A DNA stretch of 46,330 bases. It comes from a virus. Its lineage: Duplodnaviria; Heunggongvirae; Uroviricota; Caudoviricetes. The stretch is from the IMG/VR virus record IMGVR_UViG_2541047733_000004; one strand, written 5' to 3'. The translations under genes and the position numbers were made by a program. The notes below the pieces were generated by a model. That model saw nothing but the letters and a program-made list of their open reading frames with translations. It was not told where the DNA came from and ran no database searches. Below are positions 1 to 43,630 of this stretch, in pieces. The stretch's first letter is position 1. The number at the start of each line of letters is the position of its first letter.

Positions 1-1143
1 CTATGCTGTTTTGATATCTACGATAATCCAGTCTTTACCACGATCATCATTGTATCGGTCGGTCATTTTTCTGGATTTATGACCTAACAACTTTTGCGTA
101 TCCAGACCCTGTTCCCGATATAACCGTTCTGACAGAGATCGCTGCTCATGAAATGTGGGCGCAGTTCCTGGCTCCCATTTTATGCCACATTTTTCCCTGG
201 CCTTTTTAAAAGCCGTTGTAAGAGTATTTGCAGACACCTGGTCTCCTCTGTTTGCTTGAGAGGTAGTGTGACGGTAATGGACCAGATATTTACTAACAAC
301 AGCATCCCTGCACTGAGATATAACTTCACGAAGGGTAATATTCAGAGCATCGCATTTCAGGTTAAGCGGAATAGCAAGTTTTGAACCGGTTTTTTCCTGA
401 GTAATGTGCAACATGTCGTCCCAGATATCAGAGAATTTCAAATTGCAGATATCGCCTAAACGTTGTCCAGTGACAAGAGCAAGTAGCATCCCGCATTTTA
501 AATAGGGCTGCCGTCTGCTTACGCTGTCAAATATTGCCTGCCATTCGGGCAGTGATAATCTTTGGCGGTTTACTCGATTTCGCGGTTGTTTTGTTGCCTG
601 CGCTGGGTTAAATCCTGGCGGAACATGTCCTGCGTGTTGTGCTTCTTTGAAGACGTCGATCAACACCATTCTCACGACTTGCGCCATCCTGTTATGACCT
701 TCAGCCTTTACAGCATCAATTATTTCGGCAATATCAAGTGCGGTAATATCCTTGAGGTGTTGCATTCCACAATGCTCACGGAAAAGACGAATGGGTTTGC
801 CTTTTTGCCGATAGGAGTTGGGTCTTAGTTCATTATGTTGCAGCCTGTCCTCCTGGATAGAAATATATTTATCAAGCCATTCTGTCACCGTAATGTCTGA
901 GCGCCTGCCTTTCATTCTTTCTAGACGCTCATTGACGCTTAATATTTGTCGGGTACGTTGTTCAGCAATAATGGTATTTGCTTCAGTAGCAACTTGTTTT
1001 GCTTCATTCTCATCAGTTCCTAAGCTATGAAAACGACCGGATAGTGGATGTTTGTATTGCCAATATACCTTTCCGGTTCGCTTATCTAATTTGCAATATA
1101 AATTGGGTATAGAGATTTTGTGAGATCGGGGTCTAGCAGCCAT
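1..1143 (-). CDS. int: Phage integrase, tyrosine recombinase (lambda Int family, not lambda Int itself)
   Basis: 380-aa ORF; C-terminal region with tyrosine-recombinase-like motifs (FHEQRSLSERLY, LGHKSRKMTDRYNDDRG); overlapping xis immediately upstream, as in lambda. Confidence 0.9.
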   Translation of the reverse strand: MAARPRSHKISIPNLYCKLDKRTGKVYWQYKHPLSGRFHSLGTDENEAKQVATEANTIIAEQRTRQILSVNERLERMKGRRSDITVTEWLDKYISIQEDRLQHNELRPNSYRQKGKPIRLFREHCGMQHLKDITALDIAEIIDAVKAEGHNRMAQVVRMVLIDVFKEAQHAGHVPPGFNPAQATKQPRNRVNRQRLSLPEWQAIFDSVSRRQPYLKCGMLLALVTGQRLGDICNLKFSDIWDDMLHITQEKTGSKLAIPLNLKCDALNITLREVISQCRDAVVSKYLVHYRHTTSQANRGDQVSANTLTTAFKKAREKCGIKWEPGTAPTFHEQRSLSERLYREQGLDTQKLLGHKSRKMTDRYNDDRGKDWIIVDIKTA

Positions 1144-11402: not shown

Positions 11403-11675
11403 TCATCTCGCCGTCAGTTGTTTTGATTTCCGGTAGCCTGCCGCGTAAAGAGCTACGTTCGGAAGACAAGTTGAACCTTCATATTTTCTGGTCAACGTTG
11501 TCAGAGTTATCACTTCTGCTCTCATTGCTGGTTTGAGCTTGCATTGCAAGACCACTCGTGAAGGGGTTGGCCTGTGTAGCTTGTCGGAGCTGATCGCCTC
11601 CTGACTTTGCAGATTTGCGCGACGAGCTCTACGGCGAGAAGCTGCGGTGCCTTTAAATTCTGTTTTTCTGGACAT
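11403..11675 (-). CDS. N: N-type transcription antiterminator (P22 gp24-like)
   Basis: C-terminus ...VALYAAGYRKSKQLTAR resembles P22 gene 24 protein; arginine-rich N-terminal motif (GTAASRRRARRA); GGGAGG RBS before ATG at 11675; first gene downstream of nutL. Confidence 0.75.
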   Translation of the reverse strand: MSRKTEFKGTAASRRRARRANLQSQEAISSDKLHRPTPSRVVLQCKLKPAMRAEVITLTTLTRKYEGSTCLPNVALYAAGYRKSKQLTAR

Positions 11676-11773
11676 GGATTCCTCCCGAATAAACTTTGGC
11701 GATGCAATCTCGAAGCTCCTCCTGAGACGGTTGCTTCGGCATTGCATCCCACAGCTTATGTGGTTGGGTGATC

Positions 11774-18560: not shown

Positions 18561-18923
18561 GTGAATACCTACAGCATCACATTACCCTGGCCTCCGAGCA
18601 ATAATCGCTATTACCGCCATAATCGCGGGCGCACGCACGTCAGCGCAGAGGGGCAGGCATACCGCGATAACGTCGCCCGAATCATTAAAAACGCAATGCT
18701 GGATATCGGCCTGGCTATGCCTGTGAAAATCCGCATTGAGTGCCACATGCCGGATCGCCGTCGCCGTGACCTGGATAATCTGCAAAAAGCCGCTTTTGAC
18801 GCACTCACTAAAGCAGGTTTCTGGCTGGATGATGCTCAGGTCGTTGATTACCGCGTTGTGAAGATGCCTGTTACCAAAGGTGGGAGGCTGGAACTGACCA
18901 TCACCGAAATGGGGAATGAATGA
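18561..18923 (+). CDS. rusA: RusA Holliday-junction resolvase
   Basis: 120 aa with RusA-family motifs ([21 protein letters not shown]); usual position upstream of Q. Confidence 0.85.
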
Positions 18924-19060
18924 TGTTTGAGTTTAATATGGCAGAACTTCTTCGCCACCGCTGGGGGCGTCTGCGCTTATATCGTTTCCTCGGTTCTGTT
19001 TTGACCGATTACCGAATACTGAAGAATTACGCCAAAACCCTGACAGGAACAGGAGTATGA
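18920..19060 (+). CDS. Possible small protein (46 aa) between rusA and Q
   Basis: Hand-read [49 protein letters not shown] overlapping the rusA stop; below the track cutoff. Confidence 0.3.
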
Positions 19061-19145
19061 AGTCAGAGATAACAATCAACTAATACTGTTTTGTTGATTT
19101 TTGCTTGTAATTGGCGTTCTGGTCTGATTTTTGTGGAGTAAGTTG

Positions 19146-19529
19146 ATGCGTGATATTCAGATGGTTCTTGAGCGTTGGGGGGCGTGGGCGGCTAATAATC
19201 ATGAAGATGTGACCTGGTCGTCCATTGCCGCCGGTTTTAAGGGATTAATTCCTTCAAAAGTAAAATCTCGCCCGCAATGTTGTGACGATGACGCGATGAT
19301 CATTTGCGGGTGCATGGCCCGTCTGAAAAAGAACAACAGCGATTTACACGATTTATTAGTAGATTATTATGTATGTGGTATGACATTCATGTCACTGGCA
19401 AGTAAGCATTGCTGCTCGGATGGTTATATCGGGAAAAGGTTACAGAAGGCTGAGGGCATAATTGAAGGGATGTTAATGGCATTAGATATCCGGTTAGATA
19501 TGGATATCGTTGCTAATAATTCTAATTGA
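19146..19529 (+). CDS. Q: Late-gene antiterminator Q (QuuD/DLP12-type)
   Basis: [33 protein letters not shown]...[16 protein letters not shown] closely resembles E. coli QuuD; Cys cluster. Confidence 0.85.
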
Positions 19530-19550
19530 TATGCAATTGTTTACTAAAAG

Positions 19551-19580
19551 TTATTAAAAATGGGGCGTGGAAACGCCCCC
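19551..19580 (-). terminator. Candidate minus-strand intrinsic terminator downstream of the porin gene
   Basis: Hairpin GGGGCG-TGGAAA-CGCCCC followed on the minus strand by a U-run. Confidence 0.45.
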
Positions 19581-19666
19581 AAAATAAAGGGTAATATATA
19601 ACAGAAGGTTTATATAGTAAGAAGCAAGGTAGTGCTTCTAAAGGAAGTGGCTTGAGGGCTCCACTT

Positions 19667-19706
19667 ATATGTTGCGGAGGCAAAGCCTCCCGCAACATAT
19701 CTTTTT
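19667..19706 (+). terminator. Candidate plus-strand intrinsic terminator downstream of Q
   Basis: Long hairpin ATATGTTGCGGAGG-CAAAG-CCTCCCGCAACATAT followed by CTTTTT. Confidence 0.6.
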
Positions 19707-19717
19707 CGTAAGTCAGA

Positions 19718-20800
19718 TTAGAACTGATAAACCAGACCTACAGCGACGATGTCGTCGGTATCAATACCAGCTGTTTTGGTAAACTTACTATCGTCAATTA
19801 AGTTGATTTTGTAATCAACAAAAGTGGACATGTTTTTATTAAAGTAGTAAGTAGCACCGACATCGACATACTTGACTAAGTCTCGGTCACCATGAACACC
19901 AAGGTCTTTACCTTTTGACTGAAGGTAAGCAACAGATGGACGCAGACCGAAGTCAAACTGATATTGTGCTACTGCTTCAAAGTTTTGTGCTTTGTTTGCA
20001 ATATGGTTATTACCAAAAACGGTCATATTCTGAGTTTCAGAATATGTGGTAGCCAGATAGATATTGTTCGCATCATATTTCAGGCCTGCAGCCCATACTT
20101 CCGCATTTTTGCCGGAGGCATTGAATTTGCTCTTACCATAGGCGACCTGACCGTCAGTGCGATCTGATTTAGCATAGGTTGCACCCACGCCGAATCCTTC
20201 ATACTCATAAGTAGTGGAGAAACCGAAACCATCACCATTGGCTTCAGTTACGTCAGTGCGGTCATTTTTACCCTGATACTGAGCAGCAAAGTTCAGGCCA
20301 TCGACCAGACCAAAGAAGTCGTTGTTACGATAAGTTGCAACACCAGTAGTGCGACCAGTCATGAACACATCTGTTTGGGTCCAGGTATCACCACCGAATT
20401 CTGGCAGAACGTCAGTCCACGCACCGATGTCGTATGCTACACCGTAGTTACGGCCGTAATCGATTGAGCCGTAATCACCAAATTTCAGGCCTGCAAATGC
20501 AAGACGGGTTTTGTCTTTGGAAGAACCTTGAGATTCAGCACGGTTGCCTTTGAATTCATATTCCCACTGACCGAAACCAGTCAGTTGATCGTTGATTTGG
20601 GTTTCACCTTTGAAGCCAAGACGGGCATAAGTAGTATCACCATCATCTGCATCATTAGAGGAGAAGTAGTGCTTGGCATTAACTTTCCCGTATAGATCCA
20701 GCTTGTTACTGTCTTTATTATAAATTTCAGCTGCCTGAGCAGACATCGCCATCAGTACTGATGCAGCTACAGCAGAAATTGCCACTGTTAATTTTTTCAT
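19718..20800 (-). CDS. nmpC: OmpC-family outer-membrane porin (NmpC/Lc-type), apparently intact
   Basis: About 360 aa from [23 protein letters not shown] (signal peptide) to the terminal ...VGLVYQF aromatic residue; porin motifs; AT-rich promoter region upstream; same Q-to-lysis position as nmpC in DLP12. Confidence 0.9.
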
Positions 20801-21226
20801 TGTACGCCCTTTTTTTGAACTATTATTAAAAAATGATGTCACTGCGCGATAAATATTCATCTAATCAATGTGATTATTTCAAGATGTAAGTTTTAGTTTC
20901 TCATTTAATTTGTGAAGTAGATCTCTATTTTTATCTGAACCTTTTCTATCTAATCCTATTCATGGCTCTTGTCTGAACAAAAATAAATCTATTAGCTAAT
21001 TTATATTAATGGCACTTATTTATAAGTGCTCTATAATTCTTTAGCTTAATTTAAACAAACTAAAAATAACATCGGAAATTATTAACTGGTTATTTGTTGA
21101 AGTTTTCTTATGCATTTGTGGTGGTGTTTTGAACACTCGGTGGCATTCTCACAAATATCATTTAGTAGTTTACGTACGTAAAAAATTGGTTATGCTGTTA
21201 AGAGTGGTTACTTCGTCACACAGCTT

Positions 21227-21256
21227 AAACCCGCCGTCGAGCGGGTTTTTCCATTT
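21227..21256 (+). terminator. Candidate intrinsic terminator upstream of the lysis genes
   Basis: Hairpin CCCGC-CGTCGA-GCGGG followed by TTTTTCCATTTTTT. Confidence 0.55.
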
Positions 21257-21388
21257 TTTGAGTCTCGATATTAGCTGATAACCCAATACCTGAGTTATTC
21301 ACTGACTCCGAATCTGTTACGTTTCTGCCTTTATTGCGATACGTAGTATCCCCTTAATTTACACCCGCTTTGTCTGCGAGGTGGGGTT

Positions 21389-21604
21389 ATGAAATCCATG
21401 GATAAGTTAACAACGGGTGTCGCCTATGGTACCTCAGCAGGTAGTGCCGGGTACTGGTTTTTACAGTTGCTCGATAAAGTCACGCCCTCACAGTGGGCGG
21501 CAATAGGTGTGCTGGGTAGCCTGGTATTTGGCCTGCTGACGTACCTGACAAACCTTTATTTCAAGATTAAAGAAGATAAGCGCAAGGCTGCGAGAGGTGA
21601 ATAA
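21389..21604 (+). CDS. S: Class II holin (phage 21 S-type pinholin)
   Basis: 71 aa, two TM segments; [20 protein letters not shown]...[13 protein letters not shown] closely resembles S21. Confidence 0.9.
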
Positions 21605-22101
21605 TGCCTCCATCATTACGAAAAGCCGTTGCTGCTGCTATTGGTGGCGGAGCAATTGCTATAGCATCAGTGTTAATCACTGGCCCAAGTGGTAACGATG
21701 GTCTGGAAGGTGTCAGCTACATACCATACAAAGATATTGTTGGTGTATGGACTGTATGTCACGGGCATACAGGAAAAGACATCATGCTCGGTAAAACGTA
21801 TACCAAAGCAGAATGCAAAGCCCTCCTGAATAAAGACCTTGCCACGGTCGCCAGACAAATTAACCCGTACATCAAAGTCGATATACCGGAAACAATGCGC
21901 GGCGCTCTTTACTCATTCGTTTACAACGTGGGTGCTGGCAATTTCAGAACATCGACGCTTCTTCGCAAAATAAACCAGGGCGATATCAAAGGCGCATGTG
22001 ATCAGCTACGTCGCTGGACATATGCTGGCGGTAAGCAATGGAAAGGTCTCATGACTCGTCGTGAGATTGAGCGTGAAATCTGTTTGTGGGGTCAGCAATG
22101 A
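21604..22101 (+). CDS. R: SAR endolysin (T4-lysozyme-like, phage 21 R type)
   Basis: 165 aa; N-terminal Gly/Ala-rich signal-anchor-release segment then lysozyme domain; overlaps holin stop. Confidence 0.9.
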
Positions 22102-22884: not shown

Positions 22885-23364
22885 CTTATTATCCTGCATT
22901 GTTAAAAACGGCAGAATCCTATGTGACAACAATTAAACGATAGTTAAATGGATTGATGAAAATTAAAACTACACAGGTGGGCTCAGACTATTGGAGGAAG
23001 TTGGGGACACTCAGAATCCTGTGGAATGAAATAAACCGGTCTATCCGTCCATTACCCTTTTAGCTGCGCTGTATCGTCGCCGTATTCCCGCATTAACCAT
23101 GACCGTAGCCCGACGGGGAATTCCTTCTGCGTGAGTGTGCGGGAATAATTAAAAACGATGCACACCGGGTTTTTACCGCGTTAATGATTCGCGGGTTTAT
23201 CCCGGTGCGATGGTGGAAGAAACAGGAAGCTGTATTACAGAAAGTGCTACTACTGTATCCCGATGCGATGTATGTAATGTGAGTCAGATAATGGCACAGG
23301 ATGTGGTGATGTGGCAGTCTGGAACACAGGATATATTGTCAGAATAAGACCCGTAGGAATAAAA

Positions 23365-23691
23365 ATGAAAAGACGCCTTTTACTACTTTTTCTGTTATCT
23401 GTCCTGGCAGTGGGATGCTCGCAGCAAAAAGCTGATGAGCCCCGGCAATTAGTGACGGTGTATCCACGATATCCGGAATATGCTGCAGCAAATTATATCA
23501 AGGGGCTGGTTGAGGTTAAGTTCGATATTGGTGCTGATGGGACTGTGACACGGATCGTTTTTCTCCGCTCAGAGCCTCATAATTTGTTTCGTGATGAAGT
23601 GGTGAAGGCCATGGCGAAATGGCGATTTGAAAAGAATCGCCCCTGTCAGGGAGTGAAGAGACAATTTATCTTTACGCCGTCACGTCCTTGA
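23365..23691 (+). CDS. Lipoprotein consisting essentially of a TonB C-terminal domain
   Basis: Signal peptide plus lipobox MKRRLLLLFLLSVLAVGC; the rest (VYPRYPEYAAANYIKGLVEVKFDIGADGTVTRIVFLRSEPHNLFRDEVVKAMAKWRF) aligns by eye with the TonB C-terminal domain. Confidence 0.7.
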   Translation: MKRRLLLLFLLSVLAVGCSQQKADEPRQLVTVYPRYPEYAAANYIKGLVEVKFDIGADGTVTRIVFLRSEPHNLFRDEVVKAMAKWRFEKNRPCQGVKRQFIFTPSRP

Positions 23692-40147: not shown

Positions 40148-43100
40148 ATGGGTAAAGGCAGCAGTAAGGGGCATACCCCGCGCGAAGCGAAGGACAACCT
40201 GAAATCATCCCAGATGCTGAGCGTGATAGACGCCATCAGCGAAGGGCCGGTTGAAGGTCCGGTGGATGGATTAAAAAGCGTGCTGCTGAACAGTACGCCG
40301 GTGCTGGACAGTGAGGGGAATACCAATATATTCGGCGTCACGGTGGTGTTCCGGGCCGGTGAGCAGGAGCAGACACCGCCGGAGGGATTTGAATCCTCCG
40401 GCTCCGAGACGGTGCTCGGTACAGAAGTGAAATATGACACGCCGATCACCCGGACCATCACGTCGGCAAACATTGACCGTCTGCGTTTTACTTTCGGCGT
40501 GCAGGCACTGGTGGAAACCACCTCAAAGGGGGACAGGAATCCATCGGAAGTCCGCCTGCTGGTTCAGATTCAACGTAACGGTGGCTGGGTGACGGAAAAA
40601 GACATCACCATTAAGGGCAAAACCACGTCGCAGTATCTGGCCTCGGTGGTGGTGGATAACCTGCCGCCGCGCCCGTTTAATATCCGGATGCGCAGGATGA
40701 CGCCGGACAGCACCACAGACCAGTTGCAGAACAAAACGCTCTGGTCGTCATACACCGAAATCATCGATGTGAAACAGTGCTACCCGAACACGGCACTGGT
40801 CGGCGTACAGGTGGACTCGGAGCAGTTCGGCAGCCAGCAGGTGAGCCGTAATTATCATCTTCGCGGGCGCATTCTGCAGGTGCCGTCGAACTATAACCCG
40901 CAGACGCGGCAATACAGCGGTATCTGGGACGGAACGTTTAAGCCAGCATACAGCAACAACATGGCCTGGTGTCTGTGGGATATGCTGACCCATCCGCGCT
41001 ACGGCATGGGGAAACGTCTTGGTGCGGCAGATGTGGATAAATGGGCGCTGTATGTCATCGGCCAGAATTGCGACCAGTCAGTGCCGGACGGCTTTGGCGG
41101 CACGGAGCCGCGCATCACCTGTAATGCGTACCTGACCACACAGCGCAAGGCGTGGGATGTGCTCAGTGATTTTTGCTCGGCGATGCGCTGTATGCCGGTA
41201 TGGAACGGGCAGACGCTGACATTCGTGCAGGACCGACCGTCGGATAAGGTGTGGACCTATAACCGCAGTAATGTGGTGATGCCGGATGATGGCGCGCCGT
41301 TCCGCTACAGCTTCAGCGCCCTGAAAGACCGCCATAATGCCGTTGAGGTGAACTGGATTGACCCGGATAACGGCTGGGAGACGGCGACAGAGCTTGTGGA
41401 GGACACGCAGGCCATTGCCCGTTACGGTCGTAACGTCACGAAGATGGATGCCTTTGGCTGTACCAGCCGGGGGCAGGCACACCGCGCCGGGCTGTGGCTG
41501 ATTAAAACGGAGCTGCTGGAAACGCAGACCGTGGACTTCAGCGTGGGTGCAGAAGGGCTTCGCCATGTACCGGGCGATGTCATTGAAATCTGTGATGATG
41601 ACTATGCGGGGATCAGCATCGGCGGGCGCGTGCTGGCGGTGAACAACCAGACGCGGACACTGACGCTCGACCGTGAAATCACGCTGCCATCCTCCGGCAC
41701 CACGCTGATAAGCCTGGCTGACGGACAGGGGAATCCGGTCAGCGTGGAGGTCCAGTCCGTCACCGACGGCGTGAAGGTAAAAGTGAGCCGTGTTCCTGAC
41801 GGCGTTGCAGAATACAGCGTGTGGGGGCTGAAGTTGCCAACGTTGCGCCAGCGCCTGTTCCGCTGTGTGAGTATCCGTGAGAACGATGACGGCACGTATG
41901 CCATCACTGCCGTGCAGCATGTACCGGAAAAAGAGGCCATCGTGGATAACGGGGCGCACTTTGACGGCGACCAGAGCGGCACGGTGAATGGTGTCACGCC
42001 GCCAGCGGTGCAGCACCTGACTGCCGAAGTCACCGCAGACAGCGGGGAATATCAGGTGCTGGCGCGCTGGGACACGCCGAAGGTGGTGAAGGGGGTGAGC
42101 TTTATGCTTCGCCTGACCGTGGCAGCGGATGACGGCAGTGAGCGGCTGGTCAGCACGGCCCGGACGACGGAAACCACATACCGCTTCAGGCAACTGGCGC
42201 TGGGGAACTACAGGCTGACAGTCCGGGCGGTAAATGCGTGGGGGCAGCAGGGCGATCCGGCATCGGTATCGTTCCGGATTGCCGCACCGGCAGCGCCGTC
42301 GCAGATTGAGCTGACACCGGGGTATTTTCAGATAACCGCCACGCCGCATCTTGCGGTTTATGATCCGACGGTACAGTTTGAGTTCTGGTTCTCGGAAAAG
42401 CGGATTGCGGATATCAGGCAGGTTGAAACCACAGCACGCTATCTTGGCACGGCGCTGTACTGGATAGCCGCCAGTATCAATATCAAACCGGGCCATGATT
42501 ATTATTTTTACATCCGCAGTGTGAACACCGTTGGCAAATCGGCATTTGTGGAGGCTGTTGGCCAGCCGAGTGATGATGCATCCGGCTATCTGAATTTTTT
42601 CAAAGGAGAGATAGGGAAAACCCATCTGGCTCAGGAGTTGTGGACGCAGATTGATAACGGTCAGCTTGCGCCTGACCTGGCTGAAATCAGGACGTCCATT
42701 ACGGGTGTCAGCAATGAAATCACGCAGACCGTCAATAAGAAACTGGAAGACCAGAGTGCAGCGATCCAGCAGATACAGAAGGTTCAGGTTGATACAAATA
42801 ATAACCTGAACAGCATGTGGGCTGTGAAGCTGCAGCAGATGCAGGACGGACGCCTTTATATCGCGGGTATTGGTGCCGGTGTTGAGAATACTCCTGACGG
42901 TATGCAGAGTCAGGTGCTGCTGGCGGCGGACAGGATTGCGATGATTAATCCTGCGAATGGCAACACAAAGCCGATGTTTGTTGGGCAGGGCGATCAGATA
43001 TTCATGAACGAAGTGTTCCTGAAATATCTGACGGCTCCCACCATTACCAGCGGTGGCAATCCCCCAACGTTTTCACTGACACCTGATGGTCGACTTTCTG

Positions 43101-43630
43101 CGAAAAATGCGGATATCAGCGGTAACGTGAACGCGAACTCCGGGACGCTCAACAACGTCACGATTAATCAGAACTGTCGGATTCTGGGAAAACTGTCAGC
43201 TAACCAGATTGAAGGTGATATTGTCAAAACGGTGGGAAAAGCCTTTCCGAGAAATGGCAGTTATGCCAGCGGTACAATAACGGTCACTGTGTACGATGAC
43301 CAGGCTTTTGACCGTCAGATAGTAGTCCCCCCCGTTCTGTTTCGTGGGGGTAAGCATGAAAACTTCAACAGCAACAACCAACAGTCATACTGGTATTCAA
43401 CCTGTAAGCTGCAGGTACTGAAGAACGGACAGGAAATCTTTCAGCAACCCGCGACGGATGTCAGCAGGGTATTTTCATCAGTCATTGATATGCCTGCCGG
43501 ACACGGCCATGTCACCCTGACTTTCAATGTTTCTTCATATGGTGCTAATAACTGGACGCCAACGACCAGTATCAGCGACCTTCTTGTTGTTGTGATGAAG
43601 AAATCTACAGCCGGTATCAGTATCAGTTGA
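40148..43630 (+). CDS. J: Central tail fibre / host specificity protein J
   Basis: 1160 aa, [34 protein letters not shown]...; lambda gpJ family. Confidence 0.95.

Follow-up and report, generated by a model that had tools for sequence, protein, structure and literature searches.

Where does the late promoter pR' lie when a porin gene separates the antiterminator gene Q from the lysis genes, and does Q-modified RNA polymerase then read antisense through that porin gene? The question is raised by a stretch of viral DNA of 46,330 nucleotides (IMG/VR record IMGVR_UViG_2541047733_000004; referred to as the window), which holds a full-length, lambda-like prophage spanning int to the tail fibres. 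A previous sequence-only reading had described the porin as a cargo gene placed between Q and the lysis cassette and antisense to the late genes, and our gene map agrees: Q (19146-19529) is followed by the porin gene on the minus strand, an S21-type holin gene (21389-21604), and the genes for lysozyme and Rz/Rz1. That reading had placed pR' either directly after Q or near the holin gene. As detailed below, the sequence favours a position just upstream of the holin gene and not one directly after Q. Elsewhere in the prophage, the tip of J has the same sequence as in phage 21.

The two plus-strand genes that border the porin were readily assigned. Q encodes a QuuD-type late antiterminator of 127 aa that matched PF06530 over its full length (E = 6.7e-54), with amino acid identities of 96% to K-12 QuuD, 84% to Lambda_2E9 Q and 76% to Q933W, and a distant match to the Q21 structures 6p18 and 6jnx (E = 4e-8); Q21 and Q933W were placed in one family by Yin et al. 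The holin, of the S21/EssD type (PF04971, E = 2e-35), is the product of the first late gene and is annotated as essD in E. coli genomes; a search of the DLP12 literature found no mapped essD promoter.

The porin ORF extends at most from 19718 to 20860 on the minus strand. Judged from the sequence, the start that makes biological sense is an ATG at 20800 (MKKLTV...), which would give a protein of 360 aa (19718-20800). Pfam Porin_1 (PF00267), the profile of 16-strand porins, covers this protein end to end (E = 1.9e-151, profile positions 1-337 of 337), and residues 24-360 align with mature OmpC crystal chains from residue 1 to the last (E about 1e-137). Since the alignment pairs residue 24 (AEIYNK) with the first residue of mature OmpC, the first 23 residues (20732-20800) constitute a signal peptide. 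The C-terminus (...GLVYQF) has the aromatic last residue that is usual for the family. No frameshift, stop or IS element was found in any of the 360 codons, which substantiates the previous description of an intact OmpC-family porin with a signal peptide. The assignment to the NmpC/Lc class of general porins was likewise upheld: identity to K-12 NmpC with IS5 removed was 91.9% at the amino acid level, the locus is collinear with that of DLP12, the gene lies on the opposite strand between quuD and essD, and its database relatives bear the names NmpC or LC. Another ORF of 380 aa at 1-1143, equal in length to the long form of the porin ORF, proved to encode the integrase and is no second porin.

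Upstream of the porin gene, an AT-rich region (20801-20999, minus strand; 25-33% GC) represents the 5'UTR and promoter region, of which 20801-20960 is 94.4% identical to K-12. The homologous 199 bp upstream of nmpC in K-12 hold an active promoter, PnmpC, which was mapped by 5' RACE, is described as CRP-activated and OmpR/IHF/MprA-repressed, and drives the IS5 transposase (PMC11677980). A CRP-like half-site, TGTGA-N6-TCTCT, can be read from the sequence at 20911-20926. A strong sigma-70 consensus for the porin promoter was not found by either a consensus promoter scan or a position-weight scan. The sequence-only reading had regarded both flanks of the porin as AT-rich; this holds mainly for the 5' side (25-28% GC over 20800-21200), the 3' side having 37-42% GC.

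The 3' side is occupied by a 3'UTR (19551-19717, minus strand; about 167 nt) that is structured and equivalent to ipeX in DLP12 and PA-2. On the minus strand, the RNA has a folding energy of −53.6 kcal/mol, compared with −31.3 in shuffled sequences (z = −7.1). The 3'UTR is 91-100% identical among six cassettes, in which the 3' two-thirds of the porin gene is only 77-80% identical, and identity to K-12 over 19530-19706 amounts to 91-95%. This spacer is present solely together with the porin gene, being absent from relatives that have a similar Q and no porin. Castillo-Keller et al. (2006) reportedly placed ipeX between the nmpC stop codon and its terminator, and by this placement we take 19551-19717 to be ipeX. 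According to secondary sources, IpeX of DLP12 and PA-2 is a repressor of ompC and ompF. An Rfam scan of 18900-21700 at E-values up to 1 returned no IpeX or StxS family, and two chance-level matches only (sau-19 at the 19667 hairpin and Trp_leader at the 21227 hairpin). The porin/ipeX transcript would end in an intrinsic terminator that was called by the terminator scan (19552-19579, minus strand): a hairpin, GGGGCGTTTCCACGCCCC, at 19562-19579 (−13.8 kcal/mol), followed by ATTTTTAATA. This minus-strand terminator and the structured 3'UTR had both escaped the sequence-only reading. Two other candidates in this context were set aside, namely a minus-strand ORF of 58 aa (19522-19698), which has no family match, lies inside the 3'UTR and was treated as spurious, and the prophage small RNA svsR, which is unrelated.

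The 3'UTR also contains one of the two hairpins that had been proposed as plus-strand terminators. Both hairpins exist, and the one at 21227 was called by the terminator scan; the one at 19667-19706, however, lies within the porin 3'UTR and is not tR'. On the plus strand it consists of a strong stem at 19667-19700 (−21.9 kcal/mol; z = −7.1) followed by CUUUUUCG (to 19708), and it was not called by the consensus terminator scan. On the minus strand the same stem (−22.5 kcal/mol) has the tail AAGUGGAG, lacks a U tract and forms part of the 3'UTR. The hairpin region is 95-97.5% conserved among the compared cassettes. As a candidate terminator on the plus strand, it would double as the end of the early-right operon after Q. 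The post-Q spacer as a whole is, as far as its sequence tells, a regulatory 3'UTR of the porin gene rather than a late leader.

The late promoter pR' was located at 21169-21211 on the plus strand by homology to the mapped pR' of Stx phages. It comprises a −35 element (TTTACG, 21169-21174), a 16-nt spacer, a −10 element (TATGCT, 21191-21196), a predicted +1 at the A at 21203, and the conserved initial transcribed block TAAGAGTGGTTAC (21199-21211), which occurs once in the window. The pR' segment shares about 78% identity with the pR' annotated in 933W and VT1-Sakai, and 21166-21250 matches the Stx-phage region that overlaps the 3' end of Q and is annotated as promoter, qut and terminator. In Sakai, a 258-nt RNA starting 7 nt past the homologous −10 element has its 3' end precisely on the final U of the second terminator; this span agrees with the published dRNA-seq/Term-seq distance, and the published pR' transcription start site fits to the nucleotide. 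The consensus promoter scan did not call pR', and the position-weight scan, which is only mildly informative, ranked it as the best promoter in 21080-21215 (score 7.0). Conservation of the pR' region is 97-99% in all but one of the six compared cassettes, the exception being that of E. coli AF10 (91.8%), and in five of the six no noncoding stretch is better conserved than pR'-tR'. In canonical cassettes of the Q21/Q933W family, pR' directly follows Q. Here, the porin cassette separates the Q stop codon from pR' by 1.64 kb, and 186 nt lie between pR' and the holin gene. The same lack of adjacency was seen in all loci with a QuuD-type Q that is at least 96% identical, as well as in many other subtypes. 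What this locus has in common with the family is a promoter and terminator immediately before the late genes that are homologous to the mapped pR' region.

The terminator tR' downstream of pR' (21227-21260) consists of a hairpin at 21227-21248 with an 8-bp stem, including five GC pairs, and the tail TTCCATTTTT, the U tract extending to about 21258. It was called as a plus-strand terminator, its hairpin is nearly invariant across Q subtypes, and no further plus-strand terminator was called between it and the holin gene. From its position, tR' would be predicted to yield a transcript of about 50 nt. Its efficiency is uncertain because some polymerase evidently passes the homologous first hairpin of Sakai, where the 258-nt RNA ends at the second terminator, and the window has no second terminator.

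The identity and intactness of the porin gene, the synteny of the locus, the homology between pR' and a mapped promoter, and the association of Q subtype with a palindrome (see below) were observed directly. Building on these observations, we consider it highly probable that the classical NmpC/Lc porin cassette of DLP12/PA-2-type lambdoid phages (about 19507-21163) was inserted between Q and Q's own late promoter at 21169-21211, and that the porin gene lies outside the Q-dependent unit. The cassette would be a self-contained minus-strand unit with a promoter region (20801 to about 21000), the porin gene (19718-20800), and a 3'UTR with terminator (19551-19717). In a lysogen, it would be expected to supply the outer membrane with a further general porin, while the 3'UTR RNA should lower OmpC and OmpF by the mechanism reported for PA-2; the combined effect may change the susceptibility to porin-dependent phages. 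The phenotype that the sequence-only reading proposed, a remodelled outer membrane with phage exclusion, agrees with literature reports on PA-2/DLP12. Q, made 1.6 kb away, would act at pR' with its Q-loading site, and ordinary transcription leaving Q would be stopped on the plus strand by the 19667-19700 hairpin. Because pR' is located downstream of the porin 5' end, Q-modified polymerase should not run through the porin gene, and antisense crossing of this gene would be limited to N-antiterminated pR transcripts during lytic growth.

Canonical cassettes have pR' immediately after Q, and 138 nt past the Q stop codon the plus strand has a strong hairpin followed by a U tract, as would be expected if pR'/qut were located at 19530-19666 with 19667-19706 as tR', and if Q-modified polymerase ran antisense through the porin gene and 21227-21256 to the holin gene. 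We nevertheless regard this arrangement as very improbable. The plus strand of the post-Q spacer contains no promoter-like site according to the consensus scan (best position-weight score 5.3), and the spacer is missing where a similar Q occurs without a porin and travels with the porin gene as its 3'UTR. Moreover, the conserved pR' signature is found at 21199 alone, with the Q-subtype-specific palindrome at 21169. It is also conceivable that pR' is correctly placed at 21169-21203, but that 21227-21260 is not an effective late terminator and the late genes are held off by a weak promoter or by other means. The long, 258-nt form of StxS spans the hairpin homologous to 21227-21260, and the DLP12 lysis genes show low-level expression in K-12 that affects vesicle production. 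This alternative is nonetheless quite unlikely, since the 21227-21260 hairpin with its U tract is a textbook intrinsic terminator that is almost invariant across Q subtypes, and the scan called no other terminator ahead of the holin gene; very short terminated RNAs may in addition escape standard RNA-seq.

A further alternative concerns the porin itself, which could be intact but effectively silent cargo in lysogens, as nmpC is in some laboratory strains, so that under ordinary conditions neither the outer membrane nor phage resistance would be affected. DNA with a GC content of 25-28%, as found upstream of the porin gene, is prone to H-NS silencing, and no strong consensus promoter was detected there. 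To judge from its title, the study by Prilipov (1998) described the nmpC porin gene of E. coli B as quiescent. On the other hand, the homologous K-12 promoter is active, as it gave a 5' RACE product and drives the IS5 transposase, and PA-2 lysogens are cited as making Lc and losing OmpC. In addition, the ORF is intact in many isolated phages although its loop-coding parts diverge, a pattern that points to selection on a surface protein that is expressed. Silence of the porin thus seems unlikely, and we favour an expressed, self-contained porin cassette that is separate from the Q-dependent unit.

The −35 element of pR' overlaps the palindrome TTTACGTACGTAAA (21169-21182), a candidate Q-binding element (qut). 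Its centre lies 20.5 nt upstream of TGWTAAGAGTGGTTAC in a fixed register, corresponding to positions −34 to −21. As regards a sigma-dependent pause element, the initial transcribed block is invariant. In 100 viral loci, for which the conserved transcribed block had served as the bait, the palindrome was constant within Q clusters and differed between them, reading ACGTACGT here, ACGATCGT in 933W and GCGTACGC in WGPS2. After deduplication, the adjusted mutual information (AMI) of the palindrome type was 0.61 with the Q cluster versus 0.11 with the downstream type, an association that is confounded by shared ancestry and that holds across Q-to-promoter distances of 14-2959 nt. The Q-element junction contains the porin and ipeX in the window, whereas in cdtI, SfIV and Stx2a_WGPS2 it holds unrelated gene pairs, the genes of which gave a match to DUF6731 only and no defence-system match in searches with Pfam and PADLOC. 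These patterns suggest a proposal to which we assign an even chance: in the QuuD/Q933W branch, the Q-binding element may be a subtype-specific palindrome of 10-14 bp at the −35 element, and the junction between Q and this element may recurrently take up minus-strand cargo. Q21, the sole structurally studied relative, binds a direct repeat and not a palindrome (Yin et al.). If the proposal is true, Q would routinely act up to about 3 kb from its own gene, and junction cargo would be shielded from Q-dependent late transcription. It offers a testable prediction of the way in which this widespread family of Q proteins recognises its promoter, the palindrome tracking the Q subtype, and could help to predict late-gene regulation from sequence, including that of Shiga toxin.

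The porin locus is already known, as nmpC/lc have been described since the 1980s and the exact sequence is present in RefSeq genomes and isolated phages. The porin itself therefore adds nothing new, and the useful outcome is a clean locus map for annotation. At a coverage of at least 80%, the locus was matched by 36 phage records and found in 2355 of 5426 complete E. coli genomes (about 40%). The isolated phages ev017 and PhiR57_1 are 99.9% identical to it, which, together with the 36 records, indicates that the arrangement works in live phages. In NZ_CP095086.1 the porin DNA is 100% identical and the gene, between quuD and essD, is annotated as porin OmpC. E. coli AF10 shares exactly the block from the start of Q to the end of the hairpin (19146-21250) in an otherwise unrelated phage backbone.

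The closest known system is DLP12 (qsr') of K-12, which has the same gene order, rusA-ylcG-quuD-nmpC(−)-essD-rrrD-rzpD/rzoD-borD(−). DNA identity is 96.5% over ylcG-quuD and the spacer, 89.1% from the porin gene to essD, and 99% in the pR'-tR' segment. Whereas DLP12 is defective and its nmpC is split by IS5B near the 3' end, the window represents a full-length lambda-like prophage with an intact porin gene. About 8% of the porin residues differ from K-12 NmpC, with small indels, in short patches after residue ~165 that are probably surface loops. E. coli DH1, from which nmpC was removed by an IS5-associated deletion, is uninformative for this gene. Phage PA-2, the receptor of which is OmpC, carries the same kind of cargo, lc, reportedly with an identical ipeX sequence downstream (Castillo-Keller et al., 2006; Blasband, 1986). 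Proteins listed in databases as 'outer membrane porin protein LC' share 90-92% identity with the window porin. Salmonella OmpD has about 80% identity and belongs to the same fold family; OmpD and OmpC-OmpF-PhoE are encoded by chromosomal core genes, whereas the window porin is phage-borne and located in the Q-pR' junction. The Stx phages 933W, Sakai Sp5 and VT1-Sakai share the −35 palindrome, the −10 position, TAAGAGTGGTTAC and the first hairpin at ~78% identity, and the window Q lacks the last 17 residues of their Q. Their pR'-tR' region is the source of the StxS small RNA; pR' there lies across the 3' end of Q, and the transcript has been mapped to finish at the second terminator, 258 nt downstream. 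Homology to the Stx phages ends after the first hairpin, so that the window has no StxS counterpart, and its porin cassette of 1.6 kb stands between Q and pR', where in the Stx phages the two overlap.

In the window, the porin gene is encoded on the minus strand between the genes for the late antiterminator Q and the holin. The plus strand carries rusA (18561-18923), ylcG (18920-19060) and the gene for a Q protein of 127 amino acids (19146-19529; PF06530, E=6.7e-54), and beyond the porin an S21-type holin gene (21389-21604) followed by lysozyme and Rz/Rz1; bor is localized on the minus strand near the lysis genes. The porin of 360 amino acids starts at the ATG at 20800 (MKKLTV...), and the DNA 5' of its gene has a GC content of 25-28%. 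It matches the general porin profile from end to end (Porin_1, E=1.9e-151) and aligns from residue 24 to its last residue with complete mature OmpC chains (E about 1e-137), which indicates a signal peptide of 23 residues. The C-terminus is ...YQF, and the reading frame is uninterrupted over the 360 amino acids, with no frameshift or premature stop. The sequence-only reading of a complete OmpC-family porin with signal peptide, placed opposite to the late genes, is thus confirmed. A 380-residue version of the ORF from 20860 merely uses an in-frame ATG farther upstream; RefSeq annotates a 1083-nt (360-aa) gene at this locus, for example in E. coli AF10. The window as a whole looks like a complete lambda-like prophage, given a tyrosine-integrase-like ORF of 380 amino acids at its start (1-1143, minus strand) and tail genes at its other end. 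Over its C-terminal 249 residues (42881-43627, plus strand), a J-like tail tip protein (ORF 40148-43630) shows 100% identity to J of phage 21 (OL657228.1) and 55-57% identity to J of Lambda h434 imm21 and HK629. Downstream of bor, a small plus-strand ORF (23311-23691) with a lipoprotein-like signal (..LAVGC..), annotated as 'TonB family protein' in phage ev017, may be a further piece of cargo.

The same early reading had left the late promoter pR' and the Q-loading site qut either directly after Q or just upstream of the holin. Of these two positions, the holin-proximal one was supported when the 560 nt upstream of the holin were searched against phage records: positions 21166-21250 match, at about 78%, Stx-phage DNA overlapping the 3' end of Q, labelled 'promoter, homologous to pR'' and 'terminator' in the 933W record, and late promoter, qut and terminator in that of VT1-Sakai. 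The alignment places a -35 element TTTACG at 21169-74 and, after a spacer of 16 nt, a -10 element TATGCT at 21191-96 (TATCAT in 933W), followed on the same plus strand by the identical block TAAGAGTGGTTAC (21199-21211) and a GC-rich hairpin that is the same in the window and the Stx phages. The Q protein of the window is 76% identical to Q933W over their shared length, and according to Yin et al. a single family, PF06530, holds both Q21 and Q933W. Sy et al. (PMC7547250) used dRNA-seq to locate where transcription from pR' begins in Sakai, and Term-seq to place a 3' end 258 nt further on. At both Sakai loci, if a 258-nt RNA is counted from the A that follows the homologous -10 element by 7 nt, its 3' end coincides with the final U of the second terminator, which ties the mapped start to the promoter homologous to that of the window. 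By homology, the +1 in the window is predicted at A21203, and the holin ATG follows 186 nt downstream. The block TAAGAGTGGTTAC occurs once in the window and once in 19 of 20 related loci, always ahead of late genes. A Q-proximal position, on the other hand, lacks a credible promoter, as promoter scans revealed none on the plus strand in 19530-19717. We therefore conclude with good confidence that pR'/qut is the holin-proximal site and that the late transcription unit does not include the porin. The best sigma-70-like site of the region (ATGGCA-17-TATAAT, score 9.4; 21009-21037, plus strand), which points toward pR' and its terminator tR' from the AT-rich DNA upstream of the porin, may be a chance occurrence in such DNA.

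Both plus-strand hairpins noted earlier exist, that at 19667-19700 by folding (-21.9 kcal/mol, z = -7.1; followed by CUUUUUCG) and that at 21227-21248, with TTCCATTTTT, by a terminator scan. A third terminator (19579..19562, then ATTTTTAATA) is on the minus strand. The hairpin at 19667-19700 belongs to the porin 3'UTR and the end of the early operon. A U tract follows it on the plus strand, where ordinary transcription leaving Q is expected to end; the minus strand has none, so that transcription of the porin is expected to continue through the hairpin as far as 19552-19579. Every record with the spacer 19530-19717 has the porin as well; in porin-less relatives whose Q is similar, different sequence occupies this position. 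On the minus strand, the spacer constitutes a porin 3'UTR of about 167 nt from stop codon to terminator (19552-19579), with a fold of -53.6 kcal/mol compared to -31.3 for shuffles (z = -7.1) and a conservation of 91-100% among the compared porin cassettes. Castillo-Keller et al. reportedly defined ipeX in 2006 as precisely the untranslated stretch from the nmpC/lc stop codon to its terminator; on this definition, 19551-19717 is presumably the ipeX equivalent. In DLP12 and PA-2, IpeX is reported to be a regulatory RNA repressing ompC and ompF.

The -35 element of pR' overlaps a palindrome of 10-14 bp. Viral contigs scanned for TGWTAAGAGTGGTTAC yielded 120 loci, 100 of which have a same-strand PF06530 Q upstream, and in these 100 the palindrome has a fixed register (-34 to -21 in the window, 21169-21182). 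It is constant within Q clusters and different between them (TTTACGTACGTAAA for QuuD-type Q, as in the window, TTTACGATCGTAAA for Q933W-type, GCGTACGC for WGPS2-type, GCGGTCCGC for cdtI/SfIV/14040 types, and TGTTATAACA, TGTCATGACA, TGGAATTCCA and TCGTTACGA for rarer types), whereas the initial transcribed block and hairpin are nearly invariant. After deduplication, the adjusted mutual information of palindrome type was 0.61 with Q cluster and 0.11 with downstream sequence type, an association confounded by shared descent and retrieval bait. Judged from these sequences, the palindrome is a likely candidate for the Q-binding element of the QuuD/Q933W branch. It differs in this from the site of Q21, which binds a direct repeat. 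Between the Q stop and the block lie 14 to 2959 nt, and all loci with a QuuD-type Q (at least 96% identity) have the porin in between, at a distance of 1665-1684 nt. Other phages carry other minus-strand cargo in this slot: cdtI (L011 2555-3943), SfIV (L012 2433-3855) and Stx2a_WGPS2 (L013 2584-4147) each have a hypothetical gene pair (among these genes one is DUF6731, and PADLOC gave no match), and Lambda_2E9 (L003 3050-3574) has a Blc lipocalin after Q. In 933W, Sakai and Stx2_14040, Q adjoins pR'.

In a lysogen, the cassette would be transcribed from its own promoter. Positions 20801-20960 are 94.4% identical to K-12. In that strain the homologous 199 bp show promoter activity by 5' RACE, with activation by CRP and repression by OmpR, IHF and MprA described (PMC11677980). 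The product of the cassette would be a new general porin, and judging from the PA-2/DLP12 literature, the 3'UTR may lower OmpC/OmpF and so change the phage adsorption range. pR' would fire constitutively, with transcripts ending at the predicted terminator at 21227-21260, until Q loads at the candidate site 21169-21211 and transcription extends into the holin and later genes. As pR' lies beyond the porin 5' end, Q-modified polymerase would never cross the porin gene. The first hairpin after pR' in Sakai resembles a strong intrinsic terminator (L002 764-786; L006 about 872-895), and the 258-nt RNA, the StxS long form, spans it to end at the second terminator (L002 967-995; L006 1075-1103), so this hairpin is not a complete block there. 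The scan called no second terminator before the holin in the window. An ORF of 114 amino acids (11403-11747, minus strand) encodes an N-antiterminator-like protein with the arginine-rich motif GTAASRRRARRA; at this place, ev017 has only a 40-aa protein annotated as 'N'. N-modified pR transcripts could thus pass the 19667 terminator and might run antisense through the porin in lytic growth.

The isolated phages ev017, PhiR57_1 and PhiR63_2 match the 2.7-kb block from Q through porin to holin at 99.9% identity. At least 80% of this block is covered in 36 phage records and in 2355 of 5426 complete E. coli genomes (one at 100% identity), which indicates a very common arrangement that is functional in live phages. 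In E. coli AF10 (L016 2501-4605), the shared segment (98.7% identity) corresponds precisely to 19146-21250, starting at the first base of Q and stopping where the tR' hairpin ends, while the phage backbone otherwise differs on both sides (helicase/toprim genes upstream; IS1, a methyltransferase fragment and tRNAs downstream). Q, the porin cassette, pR' and the hairpin thus move as a single module. In five of six compared porin cassettes pR'-tR' is 97-99% identical, and in four of those the 3' two-thirds of the porin drop to 77-83%; the AF10 cassette shows the reverse (pR'-tR' 91.8%, porin about 99%). In E. coli DH1 (L004 3452-4510), the DLP12 integrase-to-nmpC region is deleted beside IS5, and similarity to the window restarts 7 bp short of the pR' -35 element, at 21162, so that IS5 abuts the late promoter.

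The proposed NmpC/Lc-type assignment was borne out by DLP12 of K-12, whose ylcG-quuD-nmpC-essD region is collinear with the window (96.5% identity over 18900-19759, 89.1% over 19793-21690). Unlike the window gene, nmpC of K-12 is interrupted by IS5B; once IS5 is taken out, it encodes a 365-aa protein with 91.9% identity to the window porin. The two proteins are identical over roughly the first 165 residues, and their differences are confined to a few brief stretches that include small indels, a sequence pattern as expected of surface loops. Database relatives at 90-94% identity are named porin OmpC, NmpC precursor, 'DLP12 prophage' porin and 'outer membrane porin protein LC', and Salmonella OmpD is about 80% identical. 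The porin assignment is therefore right, yet the feature is already known and very common.
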